A stretch of DNA of 64,000 bases from the NCBI GenBank assembly GCA_035221665.1, contig CM069147.1, positions 20,398,001-20,462,000 of the forward strand. The letters are read 5' to 3'. Below the pieces are notes generated by a model that saw nothing but the letters and a program-made list of their open reading frames with translations, was not told where the DNA came from and made no database searches. This DNA comes from Okamejei kenojei (Eukaryota). This document shows positions 1 to 61,200 of the stretch, one piece after another (position 1 is the first letter of the stretch; every line of letters begins with the position of its first letter). Made by a program: the position numbers and the translations under genes.

Positions 1-7
1 TTCTTAC

Positions 8-109
8 CCTGTTGCGCCTTTAATTTGAATCTTGTGAAAAATATAATCAGAATTACAATTAACAGTCCGCCCACTATACATCCAAGAATTTGTGTTTTGT
101 CAGTGGTTT
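8..109 (-). pseudogene. TM exon of paralog C of the V-C1 receptor family (ETTDKTQILGCIVGGLLIVILIIFFTRFKLKAQQG); upstream ectodomain exons missing, tail exons would lie left of the window
   Basis: 102-nt phase 1-1 exon flanked by ccag| and |gtaag, clearly homologous to the TM exons at 20969-21070 and 48592-48693. Confidence 0.8.
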
Positions 110-18468: not shown

Positions 18469-18606
18469 TCAACTTCTCGCTTTCCTTGAAACCTTTACAC
18501 CCGCGTACACTGAGTGTTTGTCATTCTGCTTAGATAGCGATGTTTCCTTGGAGTTGGAAAGCTGCAGCGAGGCGTAAGTCAGCTTGTCATCTCCGCCTTG
18601 TTTGGT
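18469..18606 (-). CDS. Copy A last exon, ITIMs LTYASL and SVYAGV
   Basis: acag|TKQGGDDKLTYASLQLSNSKETSLSKQNDKHSVYAGVKVSRKARS*; candidate AATAAA at 18397-18392. Confidence 0.88.
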   Translation of the reverse strand, partial: TKQGGDDKLTYASLQLSNSKETSLSKQNDKHSVYAGVKVSRKARS

Positions 18607-21600
18607 CTGTGAAATAAATTCAATATTGCCCGTTAACCCATTGTACAGTGACTCAGGAAAGCAATCGCTGTTTCAATACGATTGGAATATAACCAACAAT
18701 AAATATTTCCAGATTGCAGATTACGTATCAGAGTTTATGTTCATATGATTTATCCAGTCTTCTGCGGAGCCTGTCTTGGTCTAGCGAACAGTAGTGAATA
18801 TTCAATTTTATTCTCTCCACATTGCCATCAACACTTCGCTCACTCCTAGTACTACTTGCCTAAACACGGGACATTTTAAATGTCTAGTTAGCCTACAACC
18901 CCTCACGTGATTCGGGATGTGCGAAGAATTCGGAGCACCTCGGGAAACCCGCGAGGATGTAACAAAAAACGTTCAAACTTCACACTGACAGCACATAAGG
19001 CCAGAATTTGTTTTACTTTGTGGTTGGATATACGAGGAGAAGCCATAATAACTATCTCACTGTGTGATCTTCGTTAGATAATGTGGAAAAACTGTCAAGA
19101 GTGCTTGTCATATGTCCCAGATAGAACTCTGAAATTCTTACTTGCACCAGCACAACAGAATAAGTAAACATAGTACTCTGTAAATAATATAACAAACCTC
19201 TCTGAGGTCCAGCGCCATCCGGCCACCTGTCCCCTATTAAGGTGGATTTCCTGAATTCAGATTTCAATCTGTTCCTCTTGTCATTGTCTGAATTTATCAT
19301 ATTTCGTGGCGCTGGATATGCCCGCTGGATGGAAAAGCCTGTTGGCTGTTCCTTACCTTTCTTAATTTCCCATTAATTTTGGACAGCATTCTACATTAAA
19401 CCCGGGAACAGCGATAAGGGTAATTTGCATTGGGATGGCGTCGTGCAGCCGAATGTGCTGTTCGGCTCTATCTGGTTTCAACGTCACAATTGGAAATCGC
19501 CAATACGGCTTTTCCACAGTCGTACAAGGTCAAAATTATGTTCACGTTACTTCATAATCAACAGAAATTATTTCCTTTAATCTGATATTTACTTGGAATT
19601 ATTTTCGTGCAAATACTTTGCCCTTACCTCGGCATAGACAACATGCTCTTCCTTTCGTCGATATTTGGTAATTTTTTTGCCCTCACTCAAATTTATTGTT
19701 GCGTAGGCAGAGGCATCTTCACTTGACGCTTGTCGAACCTATTAGAAAGTGATATTCAACAAAGGTTAGCGGAGTGTCCGATGTAGTTCTTTAAAGAGTG
19801 AGTCTGAAACATAAACATACAGAATGATTGCAAAAAAAGGGGCACGATATCATTTGAACTGCATTCAATTATATTTCTCAGAATGTCATTCCCGAGAGGA
19901 TTCAAAGTGCCAGTGTTCAACTTGTTTACTAATTTTGTAGCTTGCGATTCATTTGAATAATTTCTCCTCCAAATGCGATCCATTTCTCACTTCCCGCCAA
20001 ATTATTCAGTCTCTGTTGTCGCCGTTTCCCACATCCCTATATCCCAGGCAACCTGGCTTATTTGAGCACTTGGTAGTGGGACGAGTTTGTCGTCTGCCCT
20101 TATGCGCTTACATGTACTTTCATTCTTAGGTCGCAATTTATAGTAGCGAAGTAACCGAGCAATCCGCATCACTTTGGGGTACAAGGGGAGTGGAGTATCT
20201 GGCCGAAAAGCACGCAAGAATAAACTACAAATCACCCGCAGGTACCGTTGGAGATTGGAATTGAACCCGATCAGGACGGAACTATGAGACTGCAGGTTTG
20301 CTCGTTGCGCCCCTTCCAATTTTAGAGGCGACAGGCAAAATGGTTTCCTTCTGCGCTGCAATGTTCTAAAATTATATGGAATGAAACTGATATATTCTCT
20401 GCTGATCGTATAATTTCTGTACTCGTCCATCCCTCTTGGAAACAAGAACAATAGCTTCACCTACCGGTTGTACGCTATGACTTGCTTCCACGGAGTTTGC
20501 ATTAATTCCTACATGGAAAAAAAATAAATCTCGAATAACATTTTAATGTCAGGAAAATGTAAGTTACGCATTAGATTATAATCACATCTACTGCCTATGG
20601 ACCCTTGAAGGCAGGCGACAATCCCGTATACTATCGGTGTACCACCGCCACAATGTAATATGTTGTACATTCATATATACCATCCGCGTTAGATCTGCAC
20701 AACCGGAGGAAGCGAATGTCTAAACCAAATAACTCATGCTTCAAATTTTGACGTTAAAGCTAATCAACACGCTATTAATACAGTTGTTTGAAAAACACAC
20801 ACTCGATCGATGATTGAATAATTCGAAAGGGCAGGGGAAATAATTGTAGTTTAACTTACAACTAATAACTAGTATTGCTTTGGCTTCTTGTTTCAATGAT
20901 TCTCAGAATGCACCAACCGCTTTTCTATCAACGGTTGTATGAAATGAAAAATGATGCAAGGTTCTTACCTCGTTGTGCCTTTAATGCGAATCTTGTCAAA
21001 ATTATAAGCAGAACTACAAATGACAGTCCGCCCGCGACACATCCGAGAATTAGAGTTTTGTCCGTGGTTTCTGGATATGGCGAAAAATGAGAACAGTGAA
21101 ACATAAATACACACAGGGACCGGGAGACAAGAAGGCAGAGCAACCGTTCAATATTTTCTGTACAAATAATTTATGACTGCCCCATGGCACGCATTGTACG
21201 GTAATGGCGAATTTATAGAACAGATCACATTATACGGTGGCTCTTTGCAGAGGTTTGGTTATTAAGTTGAGATGACTGTTCAATTTCATGTTTACAAAAC
21301 TACGCCCGGTAGTTTGACAACAGTTTAAAAAGTCAGAATGCATTCTATATTCTGGACCTGACACCCTGGACCCGCCACCGCAGGTTCCAGTAAATATGAA
21401 AAAGAACTGGATTTTTGTGTTTGCACAACTATCTAATTGTATTAGAAAATAGACACAAAAGTGCTGGAGTAACTCAGCGGGACAGGCAACATTCCTGGAG
21501 AGAGGAATGGGAGTCGTTTCTGATCGAAACCCTTGTTCAGATTGTATTTCTCGGCAGGCTGGAGTCAGCGTTAAATGCCTCCCGGCTTACCTTGCTCGAC

Positions 21601-23697
21601 AATGTAGCTGAAACTGGCAGGGACTGTAAGAGTTACGTGTGATACCAGGCAGGTGTAAACAGTTTTGCCTGGAGCAGGCTGCGTATCGCGCAAAAAACTG
21701 GAAGCCTCGTAAAGTCCATCCGCTGTTCTGTTTCTCACGGTTTCAATGCCGGTCAAAATTTCCACGTAGTTTCTTTGCCAGATGACTTTTAATTCCTCCG
21801 GATAAAACGCAGCCGTTTTACACACGAGTTGCGGCAAATGCGGCGCGCTTCCTTCAATAGCGACAATTTTCAATGGAGTTGGGGGAGCTGGAACAAAAAA
21901 AAGCGTGAAACTGCAAAATATATTTTATTTCAATGAACATTTGTCGCTGCCTCATGTTATCCGTGTGGTTGTTTGTTGAGTTTATACTTTTGTTAAAAAT
22001 TATTTTATGGAGGTTATCATGGTAAGTAGTGCAATTGAAACAAAGCACGAACTGCTGCCTCGCGGGGTTCACGCGATTATTAAGAAATAATGTGACACGG
22101 GTATTGCTTGGTAAGATTCCGTGACAGTGCTTTATGTTGAATTCAAAATCACGCGTTTCTTCTGAACATTTGCTCTTTCTTATCTGCAGATGGTAGTTAC
22201 AGAAAATGGACTGCACTGAATGGCAGAAGTACATCGGCGACAACAGTTGATTTTCTCGAAAAGCACGCAAGGATGAACCGAGCAAACTCTGTTTCTCATT
22301 CCATATATGTTATTAACAAGACATTAACGAGCATGGTTCCATTTGTGCTGGAGCCACTGTCAGTAATATTTACCGAGCGGGAGAGTTAATTGTACTTTAT
22401 TTTGTCAATGCATTGCGTAATCTCCTTAATGTCGTTTGTGTTTAAGCATTTTTACTTTCCTTAATTGATGTAATAACATCTTAGTGTACTATTATTATTA
22501 TTAATTAATAAAGCGATATCACCTTTTACTCCCTGTGCCATATAAATGATTACCAAGCAAACCTCTATTCCATACGATGATATAACCGTGGATCTATTTT
22601 GAAATAAGAAGTAATATCGGAGAATTGCAGTTGTAGTTCCTTTTTTTCTTTTTTCATTCCACGAACTTTCCTGGAGACTGTGAAAGTGTAAACAAAATTA
22701 TCCACCTCAAAACTGTGAGATCCATTTCTCCTCCGCTTTTAGTTGATGGGAAAGTTTGTCGGGTGGAAAATTTTGGAACTTTCTGGAAATTCAGAGTAAC
22801 GTGAATTTGGATGGGCATTTGAAAAGCTGGAGGTCAAAATATAATTGGACCTGCCAATTTACAAGAGCCACAACCATGGTAATGTCACTATGCCTTTGTA
22901 AGATAACCCGGAGTAATAAAAAAACAAAACTATAACAGAACTCTCGCTGCACGTATATTGACCGACGGATAGAATATTTTTGTTTGTTCCCTTTATTTCA
23001 GATTTCCATCTCGGAAGTAACCATTAAAATTATAGAACTAGATAAGATTAATATTTCCTCCACCAGCAAGCTTTAGTTACATTTGCAACAGATGAACATA
23101 TCCCACTACCCGTAACAAAGAGACACTTACTAACACAATTAGCTGGGAGCCAGTTCCATTGCCGATAATGTGCAGTTGGTGTTTCACTCGACAGTAATAT
23201 ATCCCGACGTCTGCGACACTCACATTCAGCAAAGTAAATGTACTGCTTCCCTTGTCTACTTTGAATTGTTTTCTGTCGTCCGGTTCCATAAATGTCTTCT
23301 CGCCCTCTCTCCACCAAGAAACGTCAGCGGTTTCTTTTAATATTGGAAATTTGCAGAACATGGACACACGGCTGCCCCTTGAGACCCTCAGGAATGCGGG
23401 GAATTGTTCCACTTTGCTCGAAGTTGCTTTTGTCAGAGGCAGAAATAAGTAAATATGATGAAAACAGTTGCACATACAGCACCAAGAAAAAGAGCCAATG
23501 GATACACAAATACAAAACAATTAGGAAATAATGGTTAGCCAATTGCAGAAACGTTGTAAATGTAATTTGCTGTGGCATACTAGTGTAAAATATTGACAAA
23601 TATGATTTGCTTAGCGAAATCGGTTCAGAAACTAAGCATACCTTGACAAACCAAAGCAAGAAGACCCATTGTACCGAAACCATTGCTTTCACGGCAT
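18469..23697 (-). CDS. Receptor copy A: inhibitory-type VJ-C1-TM-ITIM IgSF receptor (SIRP/NKp30-like); frame-disrupting 1-nt indels in this assembly
   Basis: Exons: leader 23642-23669 (homologous start 23697), V 23131-23426, C1 21591-21887, TM 20969-21070, cyt1 20465-20508, cyt2 19628-19738, cyt3 18469-18606. All GT-AG; phases match except at the V donor (296 nt). Confidence 0.85.
19628..19738 (-). CDS. Copy A cytoplasmic exon 2 (SAYATI, VVYAE)
   Basis: tag|VRQASSEDASAYATINLSEGKKITKYRRKEEHVVYAE|gtaag, phase 0-0. Confidence 0.85.
20465..20508 (-). CDS. Copy A cytoplasmic exon 1
   Basis: Polypyrimidine tract, gtag|GINANSVEASHSVQP|gtaggt; phase 1-0 bridges the TM and cyt2 exons exactly. Confidence 0.8.
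20969..21070 (-). CDS. Copy A TM exon (uncharged)
   Basis: ETTDKTLILGCVAGGLSFVVLLIILTRFALKAQR|gtaag. Confidence 0.9.
21591..21887 (-). CDS. Copy A Ig C1-set exon
   Basis: LVCKTAAFYPEELKVIW...YTCLVSHVTL, C1 signature; phase 1-1. Confidence 0.93.
23131..23426 (-). CDS. Copy A Ig V-set exon with germline J-like motif
   Basis: MFCKF...VSWWR...DVGIYYCRV...GNGTGSQLIV. Confidence 0.92.
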
Positions 23698-24187
23698 ACT
23701 GCAAAAGAGAAGGGTTTGCATAAGAAATAGGTTTTCATAGAATGCCTGAAGCGTGTGACTCCGACGCCGTAAATCACATGACTAAGGCATCGTGATGCAT
23801 TTTGAGTATATTTTTTGTTTCAGCGAGTATGATCTAGGAAATATGTTTTCTTCGATTTCTTACGCCAAAATGATTTCTCTCCCAGCCATTGTTGGTGCAC
23901 CGCGTTTGGACAACACGTATTTAAATCCATTTACCTCAACCTCGTTCTCAAATTGAGACTTTGTCCTACGGGAGCATATAGATACAAGGGCAGTCAAATA
24001 TTCAGCCTCGTATATTTCGTGCTTACGATCACAGATTATCCCACCTTTAATGCAGAAGGGTGTGATGACCTTTGACTTAGTCACGCTGCGAATTTATTAC
24101 ATTGCAGCCAAAAACCCCAAGCCTCAATTGCAGCATTTAAATGAGATACATTATAGCCAAGTGATGTGTTGATAAGGATTTGATCAT

Positions 24188-24201
24188 CCACTAGATGGCA
24201 G
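24188..24201 (+). promoter_or_regulatory. CTCF-consensus site upstream of copy A
   Basis: CCACTAGATGGCAG, ~500 bp upstream of the leader exon; conserved in copy B. Confidence 0.5.
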
Positions 24202-25609
24202 TTCGACGGCGTACCACTGAGAGTTTTCGCTATTGATTCGGATCATCTAATTCCTCACGCAAGGAATTTAGAAAGGGAAACCCATAGTCAGTTTGATTGC
24301 ATTATTTTTCGCTTACAATATATTGTGCATCTGTTACCTTTATCCGTGGTACCATAAGTGACTATAAGCAAAAATGTTATAACCTCTTTCCATAGTTAAA
24401 ATTCAGGAATTAACTAGCCTCTTGCTCCCAAGTTTAATCTGTTACCTTCGCAGATATTTGCAACAGCAACTTTAGCGCAAAGGTATTCAAGGGCCAAATG
24501 TGCATTACAAAACCCGATACTGAAGAGAAGGGGACCCGATCGGCACAAGACTAAAGTTAATTCAACAAACAAAAGGACGATGCGAGTTTATTAAAGTAAA
24601 CGCTTGGATTGTTAGAAATAGAATCAATTATCCAAAAAAAAAAAACGGAACTACGTCCAAGACCACAAACGGTTTCAGAGACAAAAAATATTATTCTTTA
24701 CAGTATGAATGTTAACTTAAAATTGTTGCATTCTTGGAGATTTGAGCACTTGACAACTTGTGATGCCTAATTTAAAAAGACCAGCATGAGCAAGGTATAT
24801 AGTCCATGGACTTTGTTCCCGATCAATGCAAGTTGCGATGTAACTTTTTAAACGTTATAATTGTTCAAGCATCATCTTTGCAAATGTGGTTCCTTTTGGT
24901 TATTTCAGGTTCACATTTTCAACACACAAAGAATAGTTATTATGGTAGGATGAATAACAAAACGTGAATCAAAAAAGGTGACTTGTGTGAAGGAACATAA
25001 GATGCTCATATGTACAAACGTAAGAAGTTTAAGTAAGTGGGGGGGCGACGGGAGTAGAGGGGAGAAGGGGGAAGAAGAGGGGAAGGGGGAGAAGGGGGAG
25101 AAGAGGGAGAAGGGGAGAAGGGGAGAAGGGGGAGAAGGCGTGGAGACACTTTTAAGAAGCCAGACAACTTTTAATAAGCCAGAGATACACCTCCGTGAAA
25201 TTCGGCGGGCATTTAACATTACCGTTGGGTTATCCTTGGTTCTGAAAATTGGTGCTTACGTTTTTTTCCCCCCCAGTGAGCCAATGAAAATGACTGGTCA
25301 GCAAAGGCGATTAACTAAACCTACCTGCGACCACCTCGACTGCCTATAACTACATGGCAACCCAACTACAACTGCACCTAGGACTACAGGATTTTCGATT
25401 TTCTCCATGGCACGCAATTTTTGGTCGCAGAACATTTTTCACCATGTTGAAAATTTTGCGGCGACTATACTGAGGTCGCGACTAGTTCTCAGAATGCGGG
25501 AACTTTTCGCGACCATGAAGGAGACTTACCAGAGACCATCAGCGAATATGTGGCGACCATATGGTGAGCGCAGATTAGAGTCTCCTGCACACGCCTAAAA
25601 AGTCACCTA

Positions 25610-41424: not shown

Positions 41425-42639
41425 GGAAAAGCTGCAGGGAGGTATGTCATCTTGTCATCTCCGCCTCGTTTGGTCTGTGAAAGAAATGCAATATTGCCTG
41501 TTAGTACATTGTCCAGTGATCAAGGAAAGCAATCAATTTTTCAACACAATTGGAATGTAGTCAACAATTATAATTTCCAAATTGCAGATAACGTGTAAGA
41601 GTTTATGTTCATATTATTTATCCAGTCTTCTGCGGATCCTTTCATGGTCCAACACAACAAATTCGTGGTAACACAAATATCCATTAAAAATATTCCCATT
41701 TTATTCTCTCTGCATTGCCATCAACACTTCGCTCACTCCTAGATTATACCACTTGCCTAAACATGGGGCATTTTAAATCTCTAATTAGCCTACCACCCCT
41801 CACGTGATTCGGGATGTGCAAAGTATTCGGAGCACCTCAGGAAACCTGCGAGGACGCACCAAATAACGTTCAACCTTCACACTGACAGCACCGAAAGCCA
41901 GGATTTGTTTTACCTTGTGTATAGACAAGGAGAAGCCATAATATCTCTGTCACTGTGTGATCTTCGTAGATAAAATGGAAACACTGTCAAGAGTCAAGAG
42001 TGCTTCTCATATGTCCCAGATAGAACTAAGATATTCTTAGCTGCAGCAGCACAACAGAATAAGTAAACATAGTACTCTTTAAATAATATAGTAAACCTCT
42101 CTGAGGTCCTGTGCCATCCTGTCACCTGTCCCCTTTGAGGTGGATTTCCTAAATGCAGATTTCACTCTGTTCCTCCTGTCATTGTCTGAATTTCTCATAT
42201 TTCCTGGCACTGAATATGACCGCTGGGTGTAAAAACCTGTTGCCGGTTACCTTGTCTGTTTCTTAATTTTGCATTTATATTGGACAGCATTCTACGTTAA
42301 AATCCGAGAACAAAGATAAAGGTAAATTTGCAGTGGGATGTATCGTGCAGCTGAATTTGTTGTCTGCTCTATCTGGTTTCATGCCACAATTCAAAATTCG
42401 TCATTACGCGCTTTTCCGTAGTCGTACAAGATCAAAATTTTGTTCACGTAACTTCATAATCAACAAAAATAAATCCCTTTAACCTGATGTTTACTTGGAA
42501 TGCATTTCGTGCAAACACTCTGCCTTTACCTCGACATGAACAACATGCTCTTCGTTGCATCGATATTTGGTTTTTTTTTTCCTCTCACTCAAGTTTAGTG
42601 TTGCTAGGCAGAGGCAGCTTCACTTGACGTTTCCCGAAC
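41425..42639 (-). pseudogene. Orphaned, decayed ITIM exons of copy B (42530-42639 and ~41425-41474)
   Basis: Homologous to A cyt2/cyt3; TAC->TAG by 1-nt deletion, Tyr->His, 2-nt deletion after the LTY-equivalent, last exon truncated. Confidence 0.88.
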
Positions 42640-42643
42640 ATAT

Positions 42644-45600
42644 TGTAGTGGCCATTTGGGCTTGTTTTGTGTGTCATTAATGATGGCATGTGTCTTTAAA
42701 TTTTAGACTGCCAGTTATATTGTGGATGGGATTTATGACGTATTTTAGGGCGTGTTTGGAGCTGGGTTTCTTGCGCAGAAGCTTAGTTTTTAGTTTAGTT
42801 TTGGACCAGCATGGGGGAGGAGGCATATGCTTTGACCATGTGAAGTGTAACGGAGACACGAGGTGTTTTCTAACCTTTAAAGCAATATGCTGGAGTTCGA
42901 TGAAGATTATAGTGTGTGAGACGGAAGAAGCTGGGATGTACCTTATTGTTTTTAATCAACAATAAATATTCTATTGATCAAAAGACTGTGTTGTGAAGAT
43001 GTATCTGTGAAGAAGCTCTGAAGGTCTCTGACGGAGAGCGCGCATGAGTATAACATTCTCCTTAATTATAGAAACATAGAAACATAGAAATTAGGTGCAG
43101 GAGCAGGCCATTCGGCCCTTCGAGCCTGCACCGCCATTCAATATGATCATGGCTATTCATCCACCTCAGTATCCTGTACCTGCCTTCTCTCCATACCCCC
43201 TGATCCCTTCAGCCACAAGGGCCACATCCAACTCCCTCTTAAATATGGCCAACGAACTGGCCTCAACTACCTTCTGTGGCAGAGAATTCCACAGATTCAC
43301 GACTCTCTCTGTGAAAAACGATTTTCTCATCTCGGTCCTAAAAGACTTCCCCATTATCCTTAAACTGTGACCCCTTGTCCTGGACTTCCCCAACATCGGG
43401 AACAATCTTCCTGCATCTAGCCTGTCCAACCCCTTAAGAATTTTGTAAGTCTCTATGAGATCACCCCTCAATCAGCGAGTACAAGCCAAGTCTATCCATA
43501 TGTTCTTCATATGGAAGTCGAGCCATCCCAGAAATCAGTCTGGTGAACCTTCTCTGTACTCCCTCTATGGCAAGAATGTCTTTCCTCAGGTTAGGAGACC
43601 AAAACTGTACGCAATACTCCAGGTGTGGCCTCACCAAGACCCTGTACAACTGCAGTAGAACCTCCCTGGTCTTGTACTCAAATCCTTTTGTGATGAATGC
43701 CAACATACCATTTGCTTTCTTCACAGCCTGCTGCACCTGCATGCCTACTTTCAATGACTGGTGTACCATGACACCCAGGTCTCGCTGTATCTCCCCTTTT
43801 CCTAATCGGTCACCATTCAAATAATAGTCTACCTTCCTATTTTTGCCACCAAAGTGGATAACCTCACATTTATCCACATTATACTGCATCTGCCATGCAT
43901 TTGCCCACTCACCCAGTCTATCCAAGTCATCCTGCAGCCTCCTAGCATCCTCCTCACAGCTAACACTGCCCCCAGCTTCGTGTCATCCGCAAACTTCGAG
44001 ATGTTGCATTTAATTCCCTCGTCCAAATCATGAATGTATATTGTAAATAGCTGGGGTCCCAGCACTGAGCCTTGCGGCACCCCACTAGTCACTGTCTGCC
44101 ATCCTGAAAAGGACCTGTTCACTCCTACTCTTTGCTTCCTGTCTGCCAGCCAGTTCTCTATCCACATCAATACTGAACCACCAATACCGTGTGCTTTAAG
44201 TTTGTTTACCAACCTCTTGTGTGGGTCCTTGTCGAAAGCCTTCTGAAAGTCCAGATACAACACATCCACTGCTTCTCCCTTATCCACTCTACTAGTTACA
44301 TCCTCAAAAAATTCAATAAGATCCGTCACACATGATTTACCCTTGGTAAATCCATGCTGACTTTGTCCAATGATTTCACCACTTTCCAAATGCGCTGCTA
44401 TCCCATCTTTAATAATTGACTCTAGCAGTTTCCCCACTACCGATGTTAGACTAACTGGTCTGTAATTCCCCGTTTTCTCTCTCCCTCCCTTTCTAAAAAG
44501 TGGGGTTACATTATCTACCCTCCAATCCTCAGGAACTATTCCAGAATCTAAAGAGTTTTGAAAAATTATCACTAAGGCATCTGCTATTTCTGGGGCTACT
44601 TCCTTAAGTACCCTGGGATGCAGCCTATCTGGCCCTGGGGATTTATCAGCCTTTAATCCATTCAATTTACATAACACCACTTTCTGGCTAACCTGGATTT
44701 CACTCATTTCCTCCATCTCATTTGACCCGCGATCCCCTGCTATTTCCGCCAAATTATTTATGTCTTCCTTAGTGAAGACAGAACCAAAGTAGTTATTCAA
44801 TTGGCATGCCATGTCCTTGTTCCCCATGATCAATTCACCCGTTTCTGACTGCAAGGGACCTACATTTGTTTTAACTAATCTTTTGCGCTTTACATATCGA
44901 TAAAAACCTTTGCAGTCAGTTTTTATGTTTCCTGCCAGTTTTCTTTCATACTCCATTTTCCCTTTCCTAATTAAGCCCTTTGTCCTCCTCTGTTGGTCTC
45001 TGAATTTCTCCCAGTCCTCTTGTAGGCTGCTTTTTCTGGCTAGTTTGTACGCTTCATCTTTTTCTTTGATACTATCCCTGATTTCCTCGTTATCCACGGA
45101 TGCGCCACCTTCCCTGATTTATTCTTTTGCCATACTGGGATGAACAATTGTTGTAGTTCATCCATGCAGTCTTTAAATTCCTTCCATTGCATATCCACCG
45201 TCAACCCTTCAAGAATCAATTGCAGTCGATCTTGGCCAATTCACTTCACATACCCTCAAAGTTACCTTTCTTTAAATTCAGGACCCGTGTTTCTGAATTA
45301 GCAATGTCACTCTCCATCCTAATGAAGAACTCAACCATATTATGGTCACTCTTGCCCAAGGGGCCACGTACAACAAGGCTGCTAACTAACCCTTCCTCAT
45401 TACTCAATATCCAGTCTAGAATAGCCTGCTCTCTCGTTGGTTTCTCCACATGCTGGTTTAGAAAAACTATCCCACATACATTCCAAGAAATACTCTTCCT
45501 CAGCACCCCTGCCAATTTGATTCACCCAATCTATATGTAGATTGAAGTCACCCATTATAACGGTTTTACCTTTGTTGCACGCATTTCTAATTTCCTGTTT

Positions 45601-47345
45601 GATGCCATCCCCAACTCCACTACTACTATTAGGAGGCCTGTACACAACTCCCACTAGCGTTTTCTGCCCCTTGGTGTTTCGCAGCTCCACCCATATCGAT
45701 TCCACATCCTCCAAGCTAATGTAATTCCTTTATATTGCATTAATCTCCGCTCTAACCAGCAACGCTACCCCACCTCCTTTTCCTCTCTGTCTATCCTTCC
45801 TGAATATTGAATATCCCTGGATGTTCAGCTCCCAGCCTTGGTCCCTCTGGAGCCATGTCTCCGTGATCCCAACTATATCATAATTATTAATAGCTATCTG
45901 CACATTCAACTCATCCACCTTATTACGAATGCTCCTTGCATTGAGACACAAAGCCTTCAGGCTTGTTTTTACAACACTCTTGGCCCTTTTACAATGATGT
46001 TGAAAAGTGGCTCTTTTAGATTTTTGCCCTGGATTTGTTTTCCTGCCACTTTTCACCTTGCTACCTATTGCTCCTATCCTCATTTTACACCCCTCTGTCT
46101 CTCTGCTCACACATTAAGAAACCCTCCACTTCTTATTCTCCGTTTGTTATTTATTTCTTCTTTCCTCCCTACGTGTTGCATCTGGCTGCTTCTCTTCTCT
46201 GCCTCCTGCCTCACAAACAGACTACTTGCCTTCTCTATTTGAGTCCCTCCCCCCAACCGATCTAGTTTAAAGTCTTCCCAGTAGCCTTTGCAAATCTCCC
46301 CGCCAGGATATTGGTTCCCCTCGGGTTCAAGTGCAACCCATCCTTTTTGTACAGGTCGCACCTTCCCCAAAAGAGGTCCCAATGATCAGGAAACTTGAAT
46401 CTCTGCGCTCTGCACCAGTCCTTTAGCCATGCATTGATCCTCCACCTTGCTCCATTCCTACTCTCACTGTCGCGTGGTACAGGCAGTAATCCCGAGATTG
46501 TAACCTTTGCGGTCCTTCTCCTTAACACTCTTCCTAACTCCCTAAATTCTCCTTTCAGGACCTCCTCTCTTTTTCTACCTATGTCATTGGTACCTATATG
46601 TACCACGACCTCTGGCTCTTCTCCCTCCCATTTCAAGATATCTTGGACACGTTCAGTCACATCCCGGATCCTGCCACCAGGGAGGCAAACTACCATCTGG
46701 GTCTCCTGACTGCGTCCACAGAATCGCCTATCTGACCCCCTAACTATAGAGTCCCCTATTACTGCTGACCTCCTCTTCTTTTCCTTACCCTTCTGAGCAA
46801 CAGGGCCGGTCATTGTACCGGAGGCCCGGTTGCTGTTGCTACCCCCAGGTAGGCTGTGCCCCCCAACAGTACTCAAACAGGAGTACTTATTGCCAAGGTG
46901 TACAGCCATCGGGGTACTCTCTAGTCCCTGCCTCTGCCCCATGCCTCTCCTAACCGTGACCCACTTTTCTGCCTCCTGTGGTTTTGGAGTGACCACCTGT
47001 CTGTAGCTCCTCTCTCTGACTTCTTCACTCTCCCTGACCAGACGGAGGTCATCGAGATGCTGCTCCAGGTACCGAATACGGTCCATTTGGAGCGCCATCT
47101 TGACGCACCTGGCGCAGATGTGGACGTCTGGAGAGCTATCTGACTGCATGACCTCCCACATCTGACATCCAGAACAGTAGACTGCCCTGGCACTCATCCT
47201 CCCCCTTACCCTGGATACAATACAATATACAATACAATACAAAGCAAGGATTTTAGCTGATTATGTAGATTATGTAAGGATTATGTAGTCCATTTAGCGG
47301 CTAGAGGGAGTAATCTCTTGAACGATATAAAAACCTGCCGCTACA
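42644..47345 (+). mobile_element. Solo LTR (~0.5 kb excluding the nested CR1) inserted in the copy B splice acceptor
   Basis: TGTAGTGG...CCGCTACA termini, AATAAA at 42961, TSD catat (42639-42643) / cctat (47346-47350) matching the single cctat in A (19738-19742). Confidence 0.8.
43068..47245 (-). mobile_element. Near full-length CR1 LINE nested in the solo LTR (open ORF1 with SGNH esterase; ORF2 frameshifted)
   Basis: ORF1 46262-47242 GDSIVR/HIGTND/DGLHL; APE motifs NARS, ETW, GDFN, SDH; RT FADD; (TTTCTATG)n tail. Confidence 0.95.
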
Positions 47346-50300
47346 CCTATTAGAAAGTGATACTCAACACAGTTAGCAGAGGGTCTGATGTAGTTCTTTA
47401 AAGAGTGAGTCTGAAACATAAACATACAGAATGATTGCAAAAAAGGGGCACGATACCATTTGAACTGCATTCAATTACATTTCTCAAAATGTCATTCCCG
47501 AGAGGATTCAAAGTGCCAGTGTTCAACTTGTTTATTAATATTGTAGCTTGCGATTAATTTGAAAAATCTCTCTTCCAAATGCGATCCATTTCTCACTTCC
47601 CGCCACCTTATTCCGTCTCCGTTATCGCCGTTTCCGGCTTCCCCATAGATTTCATCAGCGATAGCAGGGCCCTCTGTATATCCCCGGCAACCTGGCTAAT
47701 TTGAGGACTTGCTAGTGGGACGAGTTTGTCGTCTGCCCTTATGCACTTACATGTACTTTCATTCTTAGGTCGCAATTTATTGTAGCGAAGTAACCGAGCA
47801 ATCCGCATCACTTTGGGGTACAAGGGGAGTAGAGCATCCGGCGGACAAGCACACAAGAATAAGCTGCAAATCACACATTCTTGGAGATTAGGATTGAACC
47901 CGATCAGGACGGAACTGTGAGTGCACCCCTTCCAATTTTAGAGGCGACAGGCAAAATGGTTTCCTTCTGCGCTGCAATGTTCTAAAATTATATGGAATTA
48001 AACTGATATATTCTCTGCTGATCGTATAATTTCTGTACTCGTCCATCCCTCTTGCAAACAAGAACAATAGCTTCACCTACCGGTTGTACGCTATGACACG
48101 CTTCCACGGAGTTTGCATTAATTCCTACATGGAAAAAAAAGAAATCTCGAATAACATTTTAATGTCAGGAAAATGTAAGTTACGCATTAGATTATAATCA
48201 CATCTACTGCCTATGGACCCTTGAAGGCAGGCGACAATCCCGTATACTATCGGATTACCACCGCCACAATGTAATGTGTTGTTCATTATACCTTCATATA
48301 TACAATCCACGTTAGATCTGCACAACCGGAGGAAGCGAGGGTCTAAACCAAATAACTCATGCTTCAAATTTTGACGTTAAAGCTAATCAACACGCTATTA
48401 ATATAGATGTTTGAAAAACACACACTCGATGGATGATTGAATAATTCGAAAGGGCAGGGGAAATAATTGTAGTTTAACTTACAACTAATAACTAGTATTG
48501 CTTTGGCTTCTTGTTTCAATGATTCTCAGAATGCACCAACCGCTTTTCTATCAACGGTTGTATGAAATAGAAAATGATGCAAGGTTCTTACCTCGTTGTG
48601 CCTTTAATGCGAATCTTGTCAAAATTATAAGCAGAACTACAAATGATAGTCCGCCCACGACCCATCGGATAATTAGAGTTTTGTCCGTGGTTTCTGGATA
48701 TGGCGAAAAATGAGAACAGTGAAACATACATACACACACAGGGACCGGGAGATAAGAAGGCAGAGCAACCGTTCAATATTTTCTGTACAAATAATTTATG
48801 ACTGCCCCATGGCACGCATTGTACGGTAATGGCGAATTTATAGAACAGATCACATTATACGGTGGCTCTTTGCAGAGGTTTGGTTATTAAGTTGAGATGA
48901 CTGTTCAATTTCATGTTTACAAAACTACGCCCGGTAGTTTGACAACAGTTTAAAAAGTCAGAATGCATTCTATATTCTGGATCTGCCACCGCAGGTTCCA
49001 GTAAATATGAAAAGGAACTGGATTTTTGTGTTTGCACAACTATCGAATTGTATTAGAAAATAGACACAAAAGTGCTGGAGTAATTCAGCGGGACATGCAA
49101 CAACTCTAGAGAGAGGAATGGGAGACGTTTCTGATCGAGACCCTTGTTCAGATTGTATTTCTCGGCAGGCTGGAATCTGCGTTAAATGCCTCCCGGCTTA
49201 CCTTGCTCGACAATGTAGCTGAAACTGGCAGGGACTGTAAGAGTTACGTGTGATACCAGGCAGGTGTAAACAGTTTTGCCTGGAGCAGGCTGCGTATCGC
49301 GCAAAAAACTGGAAGCCTCGTAAAGTCCATCCGCTGTTCTGTTTCTCACGGTTTCAATGCCGGTCAAAATTTCCACGTAGTTTCTTTGCCAGATGACTTT
49401 TAATTCCTCCGGATAAAACGCAGCCGTTTTACACACGAGTTGCGGCACACTTCCTTCAATAGCGACAATTGTCAATGGAGTTGGGGGAGCTGGAACAAAA
49501 AAAAGCGTGAAAAAATATATTTTATTTCAATGAACATAATTGTCGCTGCCTCATGTTATCCATGTGGTTGTTTATTGAGTTTATACTTTTGTTAAAAATT
49601 ATTTTATGGATGTTATCATGGTAAGTAGTGCAATTGAAACAAAGCACGAACTGCTGCCTCGCGGGGTTCGCGCGATTATTAAGAAATAATGTGACACGGG
49701 TATTGCTTGGTAAGATTCCGTGACAGTACTTTGGTGAATTCAAAATCACGCGTTTCTTCTGAACATTTGCTCTTTCTTATCTGCAGATGGTAGTTACAGA
49801 AAATGGACTGCACTGAATGGCAGAAGTACATCGGCGATTTTCTCGAAAAGCACGCAAGGATGAACCGAGCAAACTCTGTTTCTCATTCCATATATGTTAT
49901 TAACAAGACATTAACGAGCATGGTTCCATTTGTGCTGGAGCCACTGTCAGTAATATTTAGCGAGCGGGAGAGTTAATTGTACTTTATTTTGTCAATGCAT
50001 TGCGTAATCTCATTAATGTCGTTTGTGTTTAAGCATTTTTACTTTCCTTAATTGATGTAATAACATCTTAGTGTACTATTATTATTAATTAATAAAGCGA
50101 TATCACCCTTTACTCCCTGTGCCATATAAATGATTACCAAGCAAACCTTTATTCCATACGATGATATAACCGTGGATCTATTTTAAATAAGAAGTAATAT
50201 CGGAGAATTGCAGTTGTAGTTCCTTTTTTTCTTTTTTCATTCCACGAACTTTCCTGGAGACTGTGAAAGTGTAAACAAAATTATCCACCTCAAAACTGTG

Positions 50301-51279
50301 AGATCCATTTCTCCTCCGCTTTTAGTTGATGGGAAAGTTTGTCGGGTGGAAAATTTTGGAACTTTCTGGAAATTCAGAGTAACGTGAATTTGGATGGGCA
50401 TTTGAAAAGCTGGAGGTCAAAATATAATTGGACCTGCCAATTTACAAGAGCCACAACCATGGTAATGTCACTATGCCTTTGTAAGATAACCCGGAGTAAT
50501 AAAAAAACAAAACTATAACAGAACTCTCGCTGCACGTATATTGACCGACGGATAGAATATTTTTCAGTTTGTTCCCTTTATTTCAGATTTCCATCTCGGA
50601 AGTAACCATTAAAATTATAGAACTAGATAAGATTAATATTTCCTCCACCAGCAAGCTTTAGTTACATTGCAACAGATGAACATATCCCACTACCCGTAAC
50701 AAAGAGACTTACTTAACACAATTAGCTGGGAGCCAGTTCCATTACCGATAATGTGCAGTTGGTGTTTCACTCGACAGTAATATATCCCGGCGTCTGCGAC
50801 ACTCACATTCAGCAAAGTAAATGTACTGCTTCCCTTGTCTACTTTGAATTGTTTTCTGTCGTCCGGTTCCATAAATGTCTTCTCGCCCTCTCTCCACCAA
50901 GAAACGTCAGCGGTTTCTTTTAATATTGGAAATTTGCAGAACATGGACACATGGCTGCCCCTTGAGGCCCTCAGGAATGCGGGGAATTGTTCCACTTTGC
51001 TCGAAGTTGCTTTTGTCAGAGGCAGAAATAAGTAAATATGATGAAAACAGTTGCACATACAGCACCAAGAAAAAGAGCCAATGGATACACAAATACAAAA
51101 CAATTAGGAAATAATGGTTAGCCAATTGCAGAAACGTTGTAAATGTAATTTGCTGTGGCATACTAGTGTAAAATATTGACAAATATGATTTGCTTAGCGA
51201 AATCGGTTCAGAAACGAAGCATACCTTGACAAACCAAAGCAAGAAGACCCATGTACCGAACCATTGCTTTCACCGGCAT
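47341..51279 (-). CDS. Receptor copy B: activating-type VJ-C1-TM(Arg) IgSF receptor with short Tyr-free tail, ~263 aa
   Basis: Exons 51225-51279, 50713-51009, 49202-49489, 48592-48693, 48081-48124, 47341-47346 (GTG TAG); total 792 nt, all phases consistent. Confidence 0.87.
48081..48124 (-). CDS. Copy B cytoplasmic exon 1
   Basis: GINANSVEACHSVQP, phase 1-0. Confidence 0.8.
48592..48693 (-). CDS. Copy B TM exon with Arg
   Basis: ETTDKTLIIRWVVGGLSFVVLLIILTRFALKAQR; CGA at 48667-48665. Confidence 0.9.
49202..49489 (-). CDS. Copy B Ig C1-set exon
   Basis: Same C1 motifs as A; 9 nt shorter, in frame. Confidence 0.93.
50713..51009 (-). CDS. Copy B Ig V-set exon with J-like motif
   Basis: 297 nt, phase 1-1; DAGIYYCRVKHQLHIIGNGTGSQLIVL. 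Confidence 0.93.
51225..51279 (-). CDS. Copy B leader exon
   Basis: MPVKAMVRYMGLLALVCQ|gtatgc, phase 1; the start Met is uncertain. Confidence 0.7.
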
Positions 51280-51967: not shown

Positions 51968-52016
51968 ATGAGGGAATTGAATGCAACATCTCCAGGTTTG
52001 CGGATGACACGAAGCT

Positions 52017-52087
<71 letters not shown>

Positions 52088-52987
52088 TTAGCTATGAGGA
52101 GGATGCTAGGAGGCTGCAAGGTGACTTGGATAGTTTGGGTGAGTGGGCAAATGCATGGCAGATGCAGTATAATGTGGATAAATGTGAGGTTATCCACTTT
52201 GGCGGCAAAAACAGGAAAGTAGACTATTATCTGAATGGTGGCCGATTAGGAAAGGGGTAGATGCAACGAGACCTGGGTGTCATGGTACACCAGTAATTGA
52301 AAGTAGGCATGCAGGTGCAGCAGGCAGAGAAGAAAGAGAATGGTATGTTGGCATTCGTAGCAAAAGGATTTGAGTACAAGAGCAGGGAGGTTCTACTGCA
52401 GTTGTACAGGGTCTTGGTGAGGCCACAGCTGGAGTATTGCGTACAGTTTTGGTCTCCAAATCTGAGGAAAGACATTCTTGCCATAGAGGGAGTACAGAGA
52501 AGGTTCACCAGAATGATATCTGGGATGGCAGGAATTTCATATGAAGAAAGACTGGATAGACTCGGCTTGTACTCGCTGGAATTTAGGATATTGAGGGGGG
52601 ATCTTATACAGACTTACAAAATTCTTAAGGGGGTTGGACAGGCTAGATGCAGGAATTTTGTTCCCGATGTTGGGGAACTCCAGAACAAGGGTTACAGTTT
52701 AAGGATAAGGGGGAAGTCTTTTAGGACCGAGATGAGAAGATCATTTTTCACACAGAGAGTGGCGAGTCTATGGAATTCTCTGCCAGAGAAGGTAGTTGAG
52801 GCCAGTTAATTGGCTATATTTAAGAGGTAGTTAGATGTGACCCTTGAGGCGAAAGGGATCAGGCGGTATGGAGAGAAGGCAGGTACAGGATACTGAGTTG
52901 GATGATCAGCCATGATCATGTTGATTGGCAGTGCAGGCTCGAAGGGCCGAATGGCCTACTCCTGCACCTATTTTCTATGATTCAATG
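51968..52987 (+). mobile_element. 5'-truncated CR1 specific to the copy B upstream region
   Basis: FADDTK to 3' tail; empty site in A near 24380. Confidence 0.9.
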
Positions 52988-55263: not shown

Positions 55264-58200
55264 TGTCAAGTCAAACTGAAATGAAAGGACAGGTGCAGAG
55301 AAATGCTAAATTGAAATCACAAGACAGTGATTAAAGTGGGCGGAACCCCAGCCTGCCGGGTTCTGCCCGGGGCTTTTTAAAGGGGCACACAGCACCAGAA
55401 GCCAGGAAAGAAGATGGAAGAGACTTGCGGGCGGCAAAACTTGAACAGTAAATCAAAAGGACTGCCCGAAAAGACTGCCGCGATAGCCAGAAGAGGCAAG
55501 CAGGACTGATTTTCTACAGACCTGATTGGCAGCCGGTTTTTCAGCTGCTAAAGACTAAAACTGCTAAAGACTAGAACTGCTAAAACAGCTAAAGACTAGT
55601 CTGCCAAAATAAAAGGTGGAAAAGAAGTATTTGGTCTGAGTGAATCCAGTTCATCATTTCGGGGTAGATAAATCAAATCCCTTTCAAGCGGGGAAACTGC
55701 AAAAACATTAGAAGACTTGACAATGAAAAACCATCGTGGGGCCAGGAGATCTGGAAACCTGGAAAAGAGACCGTTAAGTCAGGATAAAACATGGCTGATT
55801 AAGTTACTGGAAAGTCAGCTGAGCAGCTCAAGGTGGAGAGGACAACAGCAAAACGGGCATTCTCTCGTCTTGTTAACAACATCATTAGGAACCATGAAGA
55901 AATGTCTGGAGGGGAGCTCAGGAACAATTTCAACAACTCATGCAGGAGGCCGAAAAAGTCATGGAAGCCAATGGCGATGTGGAGGCGGGACTCATTGCAG
56001 AGCTGGAGGCGGAGCTGGTGCAGGTGAGGAAACTGTGTTAACTGAACAGCAAACAGCTGACCTGGCAAAAACTGCAAAGGAGTGCGAGTCAAAACTAAAA
56101 AAGGTCAAAGGGCTCATCCAGGACACTCTATGGGCAAACCTTGGGAATTTTGAATTATCCATCTCACTACAGACAGCAGATGGTGCATGTGAACTTGCTG
56201 CTGCCAGAAAAACCTAAGAACACTCGAGCTTCTCGTCCCCAAGCTGGTTTCCAGGAAGGCTGACTTCATACAGGGAAGAATAAAGAAGGACACTGAAGGA
56301 TTAGCACAAGCGGCAAATGCTTTCAATTATCCTTCACCAGCCATCAGACTGAGACCCATGGCCCTTCCTAAGTTTACTGGAAACAAGCGTGACTTTTATA
56401 GATGGAGGAAGGATTGGGAAGCACTGCAAAAGCAAGGTGAACCCACTGGGTCAAAGGAGGTGAAGAAGGTTCAATTGCTGGACAGTCTGGAGGACACAAT
56501 TACAAGAGACCTCCGCCTCACAAGTTAGAACACTAACGATGATATCTTTCGTGTCCTAGAGAACCAGTTTGGAAATCAAACAGCTATTGCTATTGAGATA
56601 GTGGAGGAGCTTCAAAGAATCCCACCGGTCAGAGGACATCAGCCACGGAAAATAGTGGAATTAATTCAAGCTGTGGAAAAGGCGCTCAAGGACTTGAGCG
56701 ATCTCGGAGACACAGGCGCTATTAAAAATCCACTGATGACAAAATCAATTGAAATTAAGCTACCAGTAACCCTCAAAAAGGAATGTCTGGTTTATGTAGC
56801 AGACAAGTAGAATGCTGTGGCACCAGAGAAATAGTTTGACAGTCTCTTGTCATTCCTCAAAGAGCAGGAGAGCATATATGAACAGCTCGAGCAACTGGGG
56901 GACGAGGAGCCGAGTAGAAAGGAAATTTGGACTGAACCAAGACATGCCAGAACCAGGTCCACCAAGTTAGGAAATGACCACACAGGTTGTGTAGTCTGTG
57001 GTGACGTAAAGCATAAAAGAAAGCTGTACTTCTGCAAGCAGTTTCGAGGGCTAAAGCTGACAGAGAAAAGAGCTGCAGTAAAGAAGTTGGGAGCATGCAA
57101 AAAGTGTCTTGAAGTTCATGATGATGATGGTTCACACTGCAAACCTGCATATCTCTGTAAAAATCAAATCTGCAAGGATGAACAGACTCCTGAGCATCAT
57201 TATTATCTGTGCCCAAACCAAGAGATGAGGAAAAGCAGTGTGGATCAGAGAAGGAATAAATTTGGTCCAGAGGAAGATAAAAGCAAGAAGAAATATAGTG
57301 GACCAAGCGGAGTTTTTCAGCAAACTTCCACCAGAGTTGGCAAAACAATGTGTTCTCCAACACTGCATCAAGAGCCTTCAACACTGCAAAGCATCAGCCA
57401 AGCCTCCTAAAGGAAGGTGGACTGCAAGAGCACCCAGTGATTATGATGCTTCTGGAGGTCGTAGCAAATGCTGGACAAAAGGTTGGGACATTAATTGACT
57501 TGGCTTCAGATACCAAGTATCTATGCCTCGGAGGATTAGAACTGTTGGAGATCTCATTCTGTGGGATGGACCACTGGGAAAGACTGTTGGAGGTTGGAGG
57601 TTGTCATCCTGAGCTGTTTGAGGGGCTTACCATGTCAGCCCACATGTCCAAAACACTCTTCGCGCGATCAATGAGAGCAGCTGCTTTAAAGTATGAGGAG
57701 CTCACTGACGCAGTCCCTGAGGAACTTTCACCAAACGGACAGATCGCCGTCAAAGTCCAGAAGTCAAGTACATCTGCCGCAAATCGGGACTTCTTGGATT
57801 GGTGGAAGTGGGATAGCATTGGATCAGCATGCGAGCCAAAGTGCGGGGGTTGCCACTGTGGAAACTGCCAGCCAGGAAAAGAAATGACTCTTACAGAAGA
57901 GAGAGAGCACGAGGTGGTAAGGGAAGGCCTCACCTACGTGACTGGAGACCATCACAGTAAAGACCCACATTGGCATGCTAGCTATCCTTGGTTGGAAGGC
58001 CCGGCTTCTCTACCAAGTAATAAAAGGACAGTGGAAGCCACATTTCTCAGGACGGAGAGGCAGCAATCCAGAGAACCTGAATGGAAAAGTGCCTACACAG
58101 CTCAGGTGCACGACATGGTGGACCGAAAGGCTGCAATCAAATTGTCCGAAGACATGATTGCAAACTGGAAGGGACCAGTGTGGTATGTGAGTCACCTTAT

Positions 58201-61200
58201 TGCTCCAAACCCCCACTCTGTCACGACCCCAGTGAGACTAGTGTGGAACAGCAGCCAAAAGTGCAATGGTGTCAGCTTAAATGATTTGCTGATGAAAGGT
58301 CCAGACGTCCTCAACCAAATTCGTGCGGTCTCCTCAGATTCAGGGGCGGAATCTATGATGCTGCTCTGGGAGACATAAAGAAGATGTATGGTTGGAGGAC
58401 TGTGAAGTACACTTACACAGATTCCTTTGGCGAGATTCCGAGGACGAGGAGCTGGGAGAGTATGCTATCACAAGAGTGAACATCGGAGACAAACTTGCGG
58501 GGTGCATTGCACAGTTGGCAATGCGTGAGACTGCTAATCTTCCTTCTTTTACCAACCTCAAGGATGAGCAGCAAGTACTCCAGAAAGACAGCTATGTTGA
58601 CGACATCCTCACACCTCACAACAGCCTCGACCAGTTGAGAATCATCACAGTAAATGTGGAACGAATCCTAAAAGCTGGTGGGTTTGAGCTCAAGCCTTGG
58701 GTTCTGTCTGGCCAAAGTGGGAGGAAGGAGGACAGTGATGCTTTAAAGAAAAGCAAAACAAAAAGCATGATCTACCAAACCAAATGCATGATGATGATAA
58801 CAAGCCACTTGGTCTGGGCTACATTGTTGAAGAGGACATGCTCCACGTTATAGTGGGAATCAATTTCTCCAAGAGAAAGAAAAAGATGCGGCTTGGTCAA
58901 GGCCTTCTACAAGAGCAAATCAAAACTCAGGCGCCAAATCCCCTAACAAGAAGAGAGCTTCTCAGCCGGGTAGCAGGGCTATATGACCCCATCGGCATAG
59001 TGGCTCCTATTAAGCAAAAGGGAGCGATCCTAGTACGCAGAGCTTTCCAAGAAGCAAAAGAGGGAAGCTGTTTGGTCAGATACACATGGGATATGGCACT
59101 CTCAGATGGACTCAGGGAGGATGCAATAAAGCCCTTTGAAGAGTACGTACAACTTGGAAAAGTCAAGTTCGTCAGGGCACTGACTCCCTCTTGCTCCTCA
59201 ACTGAACCCTTGGGAATCACCTTTTCTGACAGAAGTGAGCACACCTACGGGGCAGCGATGTATCTGAGATGGGATTCAGACCATGGCCCAATTGTCAGAC
59301 TTGTGGAATCCAAGGCCAAGTTAACTCCCTTGGACCACAGAGGAGACACTATCAAAGCGGAGATGTGAAGCAGTGTTCGCCTCACGCTTAAAGAAGTATT
59401 TTGAGCTACACAGTCAAATTCAAGTGGAGAAGTGGTATCATCTTGTGGATAGCCAAACTATCCTTGGTGCAATACAGCGAGAAAGCTACGGAATTAAGAC
59501 ATTCTTCGCCAATCGGATTGGAGAGATTCAAACAAGCACCAATATTCAGGACTGGCGGTGGATTCCTGGCCCAGAAAACATCGCTGATGTAATCACCAGA
59601 GGTGTCAGCCCTCAAGACCTTGATCAGTATTCGGAGTGGCAAAATGGACCGAAGTTCCTGGTATTGCCTGTGAGTGAGTGGCCAATAAAATCAGTAAAGA
59701 ACTGGCTGCCACTGCCAGAGAGAACATCAACAAGTTACAGAAGAAAGCTTTTGTTGCAGCACTATCAAGAGCCAAGGTAGTGAACCAAGAACCGGAACCA
59801 ACAAACCCAAAGAGACCACCTGCAGGGTCAGCTATTCAGAACCTTGTTGATGTCAAGTGGTTCAGCATTCTAACTCGACTGATCAAGACAGTCGCATGGA
59901 TTTGGAGAGCAGCGAAGAGGTTTCTTGGCAAGAACAAAGCCCTAAACAATCCAAAGTGGGAGGCCATCTCTTTGACAGGAGTCATTACAGTAAGAGAAGG
60001 AGAAAATGCTCTAAAAGACATTTTTTGTGCTCTGCAATTGGGCATGACTTTCCCAAGCACCACAACAGATCGACTGGTAGCCTATAAAGACCAAGATTCT
60101 GGGCTGATGGTTTGTGGTGGCAGAGTGCAGAGCTTTGAAGAGGATAAAGTTGCTGTTCCCATCCTGCCCGTTGATGCCTGGGTGTCCATGCTGCTAGCTC
60201 GGGAGGCTCACAGGGAGAGTCATGACAGAGTGGCTGGGACCTTGCTTAAAATGCGAAGAAAGGCTTGGGTCATAAAAACGAGAATTGCTAAAAAAGTTGT
60301 TGATCACTGCATAATCTGCAAGAAAGCAAACCAAAGAAATGTCAACAAGTAATGAGTGATCTACCGCCTGAAAGAACTGAACCTGCTGCTCCTTTTGAGT
60401 TTACAACAGTAGACCTCTTTGGACCCTACCACGTACACGATGACGTCAAGAAGAGGGTAAAACTCAAAGTCTGGGGAGTTGTCTTCTGCTGTATGGCCAG
60501 CAGAGCCATCCACACAGAGTTAGTCAACACCTTATCAAGTGAAGGGTTTCTGATGGCTTATCAAAAATTCACAGCAATCCGTGGGCACCCCAAGAAGATC
60601 TGGTCAGATCCAGGCACAAATTTTATTGGCGCAAAACCAGTCTTAGAGAAACTATATAGATTTTTGGACAACCTGGACAGAGCAGCTTTGGGGGAGAACA
60701 CAGCTAAAAATGGACAGAGTGGATGTGGAAAATCCATCCTGCTGATTCTCCACACAGGAATGGCGCTGCGGAAGCTGCTGTGCGTGTTGTGAAGAGAGCG
60801 CTCCAAAGTTTTGGAAAAGAATCGTCACTCAGTTATAGTGCGTTTCAGACAGCTCTTTACATAGCAGCAAACCTGTCAAATGAACGTCCAATCGACGCCA
60901 GGATACAAAGCCGGGAAGACTGCATTCAGTACATTACACCAAATACGCTTCTGCTTGGCCAAGCATCTCAGTGCGGAGATATTAAGTGTTTTGACTTTTC
61001 CAGCTACCCCTACAAAAGACTTAGAACAATGCAGTCAGAGGTGAACAAGTTTTGGAAGAGCTGGAGCCAACTCGCTGGTCCTAACTTGTTTATAAGGAGC
61101 AAGTGGCACACCACTCAGAGAAATGTCACTGCCGGAGATATTGTCTGGTTAAGTGACCAAAATGCACTGACGGGGCAATTCAAGCTGGGCAGAGTCATCA

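Follow-up and report, generated by a model that had tools for sequence, protein, structure and literature searches.

How two neighbouring receptor genes can keep nearly identical ligand-binding domains while their signalling ends differ is the question raised by this locus. The window, that is, the whole 64,000-nucleotide stretch analysed (C17:20398001-20462000), carries two such genes, A and B, both on the minus strand and both ordered as leader, V(J), C1, transmembrane (TM) and three tail exons. Their V exon is a single-exon VJ domain with a G-x-G-T J-type motif at its end. Judged by sequence, the two genes qualify as paired opposing receptors with homogenised ligand-binding domains: their linked ectodomains differ by 0.78% in DNA, A combines ITIM-type motifs with an uncharged TM helix (frame errors in its assembly are treated below), and B has a TM arginine and no ITIM, with a Val-stop at an LTR. 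Our preferred reading, with a probability of roughly 0.7, is that A is likely inhibitory and B likely activating, and that the near-identical ectodomains of this old tandem pair have been kept alike by repeated misaligned recombination. Adaptor coupling, opposite signalling, a shared ligand and co-expression would be expected of such a pair.

Self-comparison revealed one tandem duplication (unit A, 18558-41431; unit B, 41428-71418), and A and B are thus the old tandem duplicate of a VJ-C1-TM receptor gene. The junction is exact to the base, shows a short microhomology and lies inside the last exon, so that B started without most of that exon. A tail taken by B from a different paralog was considered and rejected, as the tail was found only in A and B in a genome search and the duplication is clean.

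In gene A (all exons on the minus strand), the signal exon (23644..23699) is followed by the V exon (23131..23426) with its J-type end, the C1-set exon (21591..21887), a TM exon (20969..21070; a stretch at 21005..21052 is marked within it) whose helix is without a charged residue, tail exon 1 (20465..20508), tail exon 2 (19628..19738) with one ITIM-type motif and, at its end, another tyrosine, and the last exon (18469..18606) with two ITIM-type motifs and the stop, the duplication breakpoint (~18558) lying inside it. The tail thus holds three ITIM-type motifs, which we take to fit the ITIM consensus, plus a fourth tyrosine, and on these motifs A is likely an inhibitory receptor. As assembled, the V exon is one base short at its donor and the signal exon has three single-base indels relative to B. 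Among the contigs listed, the missing donor base occurs in all 4 short-read runs, and the C-terminus of A is closely like that of the electric-ray homolog P0006; these breaks are therefore read as assembly errors, which is likely for both the leader and the V donor, judging from contigs that are collapsed over that region. An apparent count of nine substitutions in the signal exon under global alignment was discarded, as it arose from misalignment of the three single-base indels, and local alignment gives none.

Gene B (minus strand) is in frame from leader to stop. Its signal exon (51225..51279) is intact and resembles the leaders of ray and shark homologs; the V exon (50713..51009) is in frame, the C1-set exon (49202..49489) has a 9-base in-frame deletion relative to A, and the TM exon (48592..48693) encodes an arginine at about helix position 4. 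Tail exon 1 (48081..48124) is the last intact tail exon. Tail exon 2 (42530..42640) is dead, with its acceptor lost, a stop at the tyrosine codon and a one-base frameshift, and of the last exon only a remnant (41428..41474), cut at the duplication junction through the first motif of the exon, is left. A solo LTR (42645..47346), split by a nested CR1-type LINE (~43071-47230), has inserted into the splice acceptor of exon 2 and duplicated 5 bases of target; the upstream target copy retains the acceptor and the first bases of the LTR, as read from the assembly, then give an in-frame Val-stop, whereas the downstream copy has no acceptor. The two ends of this LTR occur ~485-620 bp apart at other genomic sites. 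The resulting tail is tyrosine-free, and splice skipping to the clipped last exon would likewise yield no ITIM. From the TM arginine and the tyrosine-free tail, B is predicted to be an activating receptor, which we consider likely. A and B apparently share lost acceptors, those of the paralogs' V and TM exons (window 23427-23445 and 21071-21080 and the B equivalents), and would for these exons use in-frame acceptors 15 and 6 bases downstream. Upstream of B lies a B-specific 1-kb CR1 fragment (51969..52987), in which a 66-G run at window 52017-52082 is possibly a sequencing artefact.

The divergence between A and B is very uneven along the unit. In the V-C1 intron, 4 of 775 aligned bases are substituted in 22321-23100 (0.52%) and 10 of 1219 over the whole intron (0.82%), whereas in the tail intron at 18607-19628 the figure is 137 of 1013 (13.5%; Fisher P = 1e-43 between the introns); a preliminary description, counting by eye, had put about 4 substitutions in ~780 bp of the former and far more in the tail-side introns, and both counts are borne out. 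By change-point analysis, the innermost homogenised tract (21568..23789; 17 substitutions in 2187 aligned bases, 0.78%) spans the C1, V and signal exons, and its change points at 21568 and 23790 closely bracket the C1-to-leader exons. On the tail side it is followed by segments of 3.1% (20260-21567, containing the TM exon and the first tail exon), 10% (19934-20259), 2.6% (19780-19933) and 13.4% (18558-19779), and on the upstream side by 2.7% (23790-24888) and then 6-13%, the far-upstream baseline being 8.2-8.7%. A run of 557 identical bases (22566-23124) is the longest, whereas none of 10000 permutations of the 6413 columns gave one above 282 (P<1e-4). Uniform divergence along the unit, the outcome that the description had named as fatal to its claim, was rejected by this permutation test and by the change-point analysis (0.78% in the core versus 13.4% in the tail). 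At the protein level, A and B agree in 94 of 97 V residues and 93 of 95 C1 residues. The tail divergence exceeds the upstream baseline (P=2e-6), which suggests that the tail has gone without exchange for longer than the rest of the unit.

The identity gradient proposed earlier is thus real, but its shape is a stepped peak with two flanks and not a one-sided slope. Restriction to the ectodomain holds for the innermost tract, but not for the 3% shoulder, which runs through the TM and first tail exons to 20260. The LTR/CR1 insertion had been offered as the tract boundary; the strongest tail-side step, however, is at 20260 (LR 146), beside small indels and ~520 bp inside the LTR site, and what lies near the LTR is a weaker step at 19780 (LR 12; 83/595 versus 43/557, P=0.0009). 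A further step is found across the upstream CR1 insertion (12/683 versus 29/669, P=0.007). The clearer role of the LTR is in severing the tyrosine-bearing tail exons of B, not in marking the tract boundary.

A B-specific BEL-type LTR element (55264..61939, plus strand) had been used to date the homogenisation. Its LTRs (55264-55722 and 61492-61939) are 3.1% apart, with 14 of 448 aligned bases different (only 2 of the 14 in CpG context) plus one 11-base gap, in agreement with the earlier ~14 in ~450 bp. In line with insertion after the duplication, it is confined to B and flanked by a target duplication of 5 bases, and the corresponding site in A, near 26200, is empty; its LTRs are indeed more diverged than the V-C1 intron (14/448 versus 10/1219, Fisher P = 0.0017). 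However, LTRs of one element can differ from the start, and the 8-13% flanks thus make a better case than the LTR clock.

Short-read contigs from 4 of 24 runs were aligned to A, among which X1 and X5 are of the same species from two studies and X6 and X8 of two other species. In 4 of 4 runs the tail assembles as two contig classes while the core collapses. For the core, X1 has a single contig, 2947 bases long, whose depth of 22.4 is close to the summed depth, and the dominant core contig of X5 (depth 160) has 2 substitutions relative to A over 22072-23365 (1.3 kb). Since two tail types and a near-identical core are seen in the X1 and X5 contigs, polishing is not the source of the near-identity, and the homogenisation is real rather than the product of cross-mapped reads, a doubt that the preliminary description had itself raised. 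In the other species, A-type tails are 4.7-5.7% from A (4 records among those listed), a second tail class is, like B, 11-13% from A (3 records among those listed), and core contigs are 3.5-5.6% from A (3 records among those listed; X6 record 21, with 53 differences over 21568-21947 at depth 68, was excluded from this ortholog range as a probable other paralog), versus 0.8% between A and B within the species. With both tail types in two other species and their core 3.5-5.6% away, the duplication predates the speciations and the homogenisation postdates them, and the claim of recent homogenisation is upheld; a duplication older than speciation with younger homogenisation is the standard test for concerted evolution. 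Ectodomains group by species and tails by paralog, as had been anticipated, here in contig difference counts against A in two other species and not in trees.

Depths of the contigs, a rough guide rather than true copy number, stand for A tail, B tail, core, A upstream and B upstream at 1:1.7:2.6:2.1:0.9 in X1 and 1:6:6:5:0.9 in X5 (the B-upstream figure being the bin total minus the main contig), with a single-copy yardstick, the paralog TM, at 1.1 (X1) and 0.8 (X5) relative to the A tail. Unequal crossover in the core predicts 1:n:n+1:n:1, which the X1 and X5 depths fit, and this suggests that the array expands and contracts by crossovers at ~21050-24380. The high-depth upstream contig of X5 crosses 24381 without the CR1 insertion of B, and X8 exhibits no excess of B-type tail depth. 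The contig depths thus suggest an array of one A tail and about 2-6 B-type units, and unequal crossing-over that acts besides, or in place of, pure conversion; conversion from the same misalignment probably adds the shoulders. Gene conversion, the mechanism put forward earlier, accordingly survives as recent homogenisation but not as the sole process, since the depths indicate expansion of B-type units. The two processes are not separable with these data, as was concluded also for mammalian pairs (PMC3210942). The assembly probably under-counts copies at this locus; no extra assembled copies of B were found elsewhere in the genome by genome searches, whose counts are lower bounds. What seemed to be another TM variant, at depth 9 in X1 and 24 in X5, was rejected as an allele, as it matches a paralog TM ~60 kb before the window, and this is the TM that serves as the yardstick above.

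The start of the TM exon forms a divergent island. Between the TM exons of B and A there are four amino-acid-changing differences and one silent difference within 24 bases, including Gly to Arg, and the clustering of these five alone is marginal after correction (P about 0.08). In a 565-base contig of X5, 9 of 15 differences fall within a 48-base stretch at the TM start (P=4e-7) and 7 of the 9 change residues; across the copies the island changes are mostly residue-altering (4/5, 7/9, 5/6). Two arginines are carried by the dominant TM contig of X5. One Gly-to-Arg change is found at depth 183 in X5 and at depth 168 in the other species X6, where an Arg-free TM (depth 97) exists beside it; X8 yields a single TM contig, without arginine. 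Arginine-bearing TM exons are thus confirmed as a class, but the arginine codon of the assembled B itself was not seen in the 4 runs: no X1 contig covers the island, and the arginines of X5 and X6 are elsewhere in the helix, the positions differing between copies (~4, 5 and 8). Possibly, a TM arginine was regained after conversion from A had erased an older one. Partners of FcR-gamma have an arginine in the N-terminal TM segment (PMC1440944), and the genome holds two TM exons of the zeta/FcR-gamma family.

Homologs from databases, labelled NCR3LG1-like, SIRP-like or tapasin-related-like, were found in cartilaginous fish (Mobula, Hypanus, Narcine, Heterodontus, Scyliorhinus and Mustelus), with rays nearest; they have the same V-C1-TM-tail layout as A and B, and their names are automatic labels rather than tested functions. 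The V domains of A and B group with ray proteins. For the homolog tree 21 of 24 were used, the other three being two isoforms that lack a TM exon and a partial model. ITIM-type motifs occur in 0 of 7 homologs with a TM arginine and in 7 of 14 without (P=0.047, the homologs not being independent and their tails, from automatic annotation, possibly cut short), and in homologs from manta and catshark a TM arginine accompanies short tails. The C1 domains of catshark, like those of horn shark, cluster by species, and two catshark proteins, P0014 and P0016, are 93% alike over V and C1 against 24% over the TM region. Among horn shark and catshark paralogs (P0010, P0012, P0017; P0014, P0016, P0019), C1 is 86-93% alike while V is 44-51% alike or the TM unrelated, a mosaic that amounts to exon-wise exchange across the family. 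A PDB sequence search matched generic Ig domains only.

The surroundings of the pair are rich in relatives. In the 264 kb around the window, seven V exons on the minus strand are close relatives, and the plus strand adds a V-C1 gene that is more distant. At least 23 related V exons are found on C17; these VJ-type exons, at 17.2, 20.4-20.8 and 25.4-25.9 Mb, form a larger receptor complex away from the MHC. MHC class I matches fall on another chromosome, C30 (15 of 15), whereas the A/B cluster is on C17. A second tandem duplication, of ~23 kb and with a divergence that varies between patches from 0.3 to 7%, lies about 59 to 13 kb before the window and includes V and C1 exons but not the TM exon; two V-C1 sets there lack their own TM exon and may be dead or encode secreted or multi-domain proteins. 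At window 6-128 and 3091-3198 there are an isolated TM exon, 85% like that of A, and a broken remnant of a last exon, in an unexpected order and with no V or C1 match upstream of this TM before A. A paralog with its V exon at about window+151 kb has an acidic residue in the C-terminal part of its TM region.

Other explanations were weighed against misaligned recombination between opposing receptors. A neutral course, in which homogenisation is without function and B is a non-signalling decoy or a decaying copy whose arginines sit at the membrane edge without adaptor coupling, would suit the death of B's tail exons 2 and 3, the shifting helix position of the arginine, and introns as homogenised as exons; we consider it rather unlikely, in view of the intact frame of B from leader to stop, the predominance of residue-altering changes in the island, one arginine shared across species, and the company that TM arginines keep with short tails in manta and catshark.

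It appears quite unlikely that the two copies are fixed in number and have exchanged DNA by non-crossover conversion alone, with the LTR insertion as its boundary. Short tracts would more easily produce the stepped, patchy identity and a divergent island within homogenised DNA, and there are weak steps at 19780, near the LTR site, and on crossing the upstream CR1 insertion. Yet the depths point to additional B-type units that carry A-type upstream DNA, which conversion would not create by itself, and the main step at 20260 is beside small indels, not at the LTR. Far less probable still is an assembly artefact, be it collapse, cross-polishing or two haplotypes joined in tandem, which for the identity peak is largely refuted: contigs of two samples from two studies show both tail types with a near-identical core, both tail types recur in two other species, and the junction is base-exact with microhomology. 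The single-base indels of A are typical of long-read error, but cross-polishing would tend to erase them rather than leave them; as the reads suggest more units than the two assembled, the assembled B may itself be a mosaic of copies.

Among known systems, Siglec-5/14 reportedly shows the same ectodomain homogenisation as Siglec-11/16, and the analogy drawn earlier to these pairs is right in kind, although A and B are not Siglecs, their second domain being C1-set and not C2-set. In Siglec-11/Siglec-16 (PMC5701461), a ~2-kb tract over the 5' exons is 97-99% identical, with lower identity beyond, and recurs per lineage, much like A/B; Siglecs are V-set plus C2-set sialic-acid lectins, whereas A and B are VJ plus C1-set. 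PIR-A/PIR-B and other 'merohomogenized' receptors (PMC3210942) have several arginine-TM, ITIM-less copies beside one ITIM gene, with ligand-binding domains clustering by species and signalling parts by paralog, as here, and both conversion and unequal crossing-over have been invoked; they differ in being mammalian, with six Ig domains instead of one VJ and one C1, and the tail loss described here traces to a duplication breakpoint and an LTR-supplied stop. LILRA6/LILRB3, of a different protein family, is a tandem pair whose activating partner varies in copy number while the inhibitory one is constant, for which unequal crossing-over has been proposed (PMC3894450); there 1-4 copies are reported per diploid human genome, versus the 2-6 B-type units per A suggested here. 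Nearest in domain structure are the elasmobranch UrIg/UrIg2 and NCR3 (PMC12227049, PMC10751288), which likewise have a single-exon VJ domain followed by C1, and within-species conversion is reported for UrIg2 C domains; A and B differ in having one C1 only, then TM and ITIM tail, and are not MHC-linked. By analogy, A/B would be a further instance of the pattern of PIR-A/B, LILRA6/B3 and Siglec-11/16, in an old lineage. No description of the A/B cluster was found in the literature, in which subscription papers were thinly covered; a paper on the shark NCR3 family could cover related genes.

How the pair may have reached its present state can be sketched as follows. The duplication junction clipped the last exon of B, and the solo LTR in the next splice acceptor supplies an immediate stop. 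Misaligned units would cross over inside the ectodomain, multiplying a unit of B tail, core and A-type upstream DNA, so that each array would end up with a single A tail and some 2-6 B-type units, while the stepped shoulders would be explained by conversion without crossover, starting from the same misalignment. Selection would discard exchanges that erase the arginine or move the ITIMs, leaving the divergent island at the TM start and the unexchanged tail. B is predicted to couple to an adaptor of FcR-gamma or CD3-zeta type, and A and B to bind the same ligand. The full account, that is, a cartilaginous-fish paired activating/inhibitory system of germline-joined VJ-C1 receptors, built like antigen receptors, whose activating partner arose by the clipping of the last ITIM exon and the LTR stop, was amplified by ectodomain crossing-over and gained its TM arginine repeatedly and at differing positions in the helix, is put forward tentatively.

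Published paired receptors with homogenised ectodomains were located in mammals and Xenopus only. If our reading is true, the same solution is at work in cartilaginous fishes too, built on a VJ-C1 scaffold near to what has been proposed as the precursor of antibodies and T-cell receptors. This locus would then record the steps from an inhibitory to an activating receptor (breakpoint, LTR stop and TM arginine), and would offer a clear example of a small divergent island that persists inside a homogenised tract.
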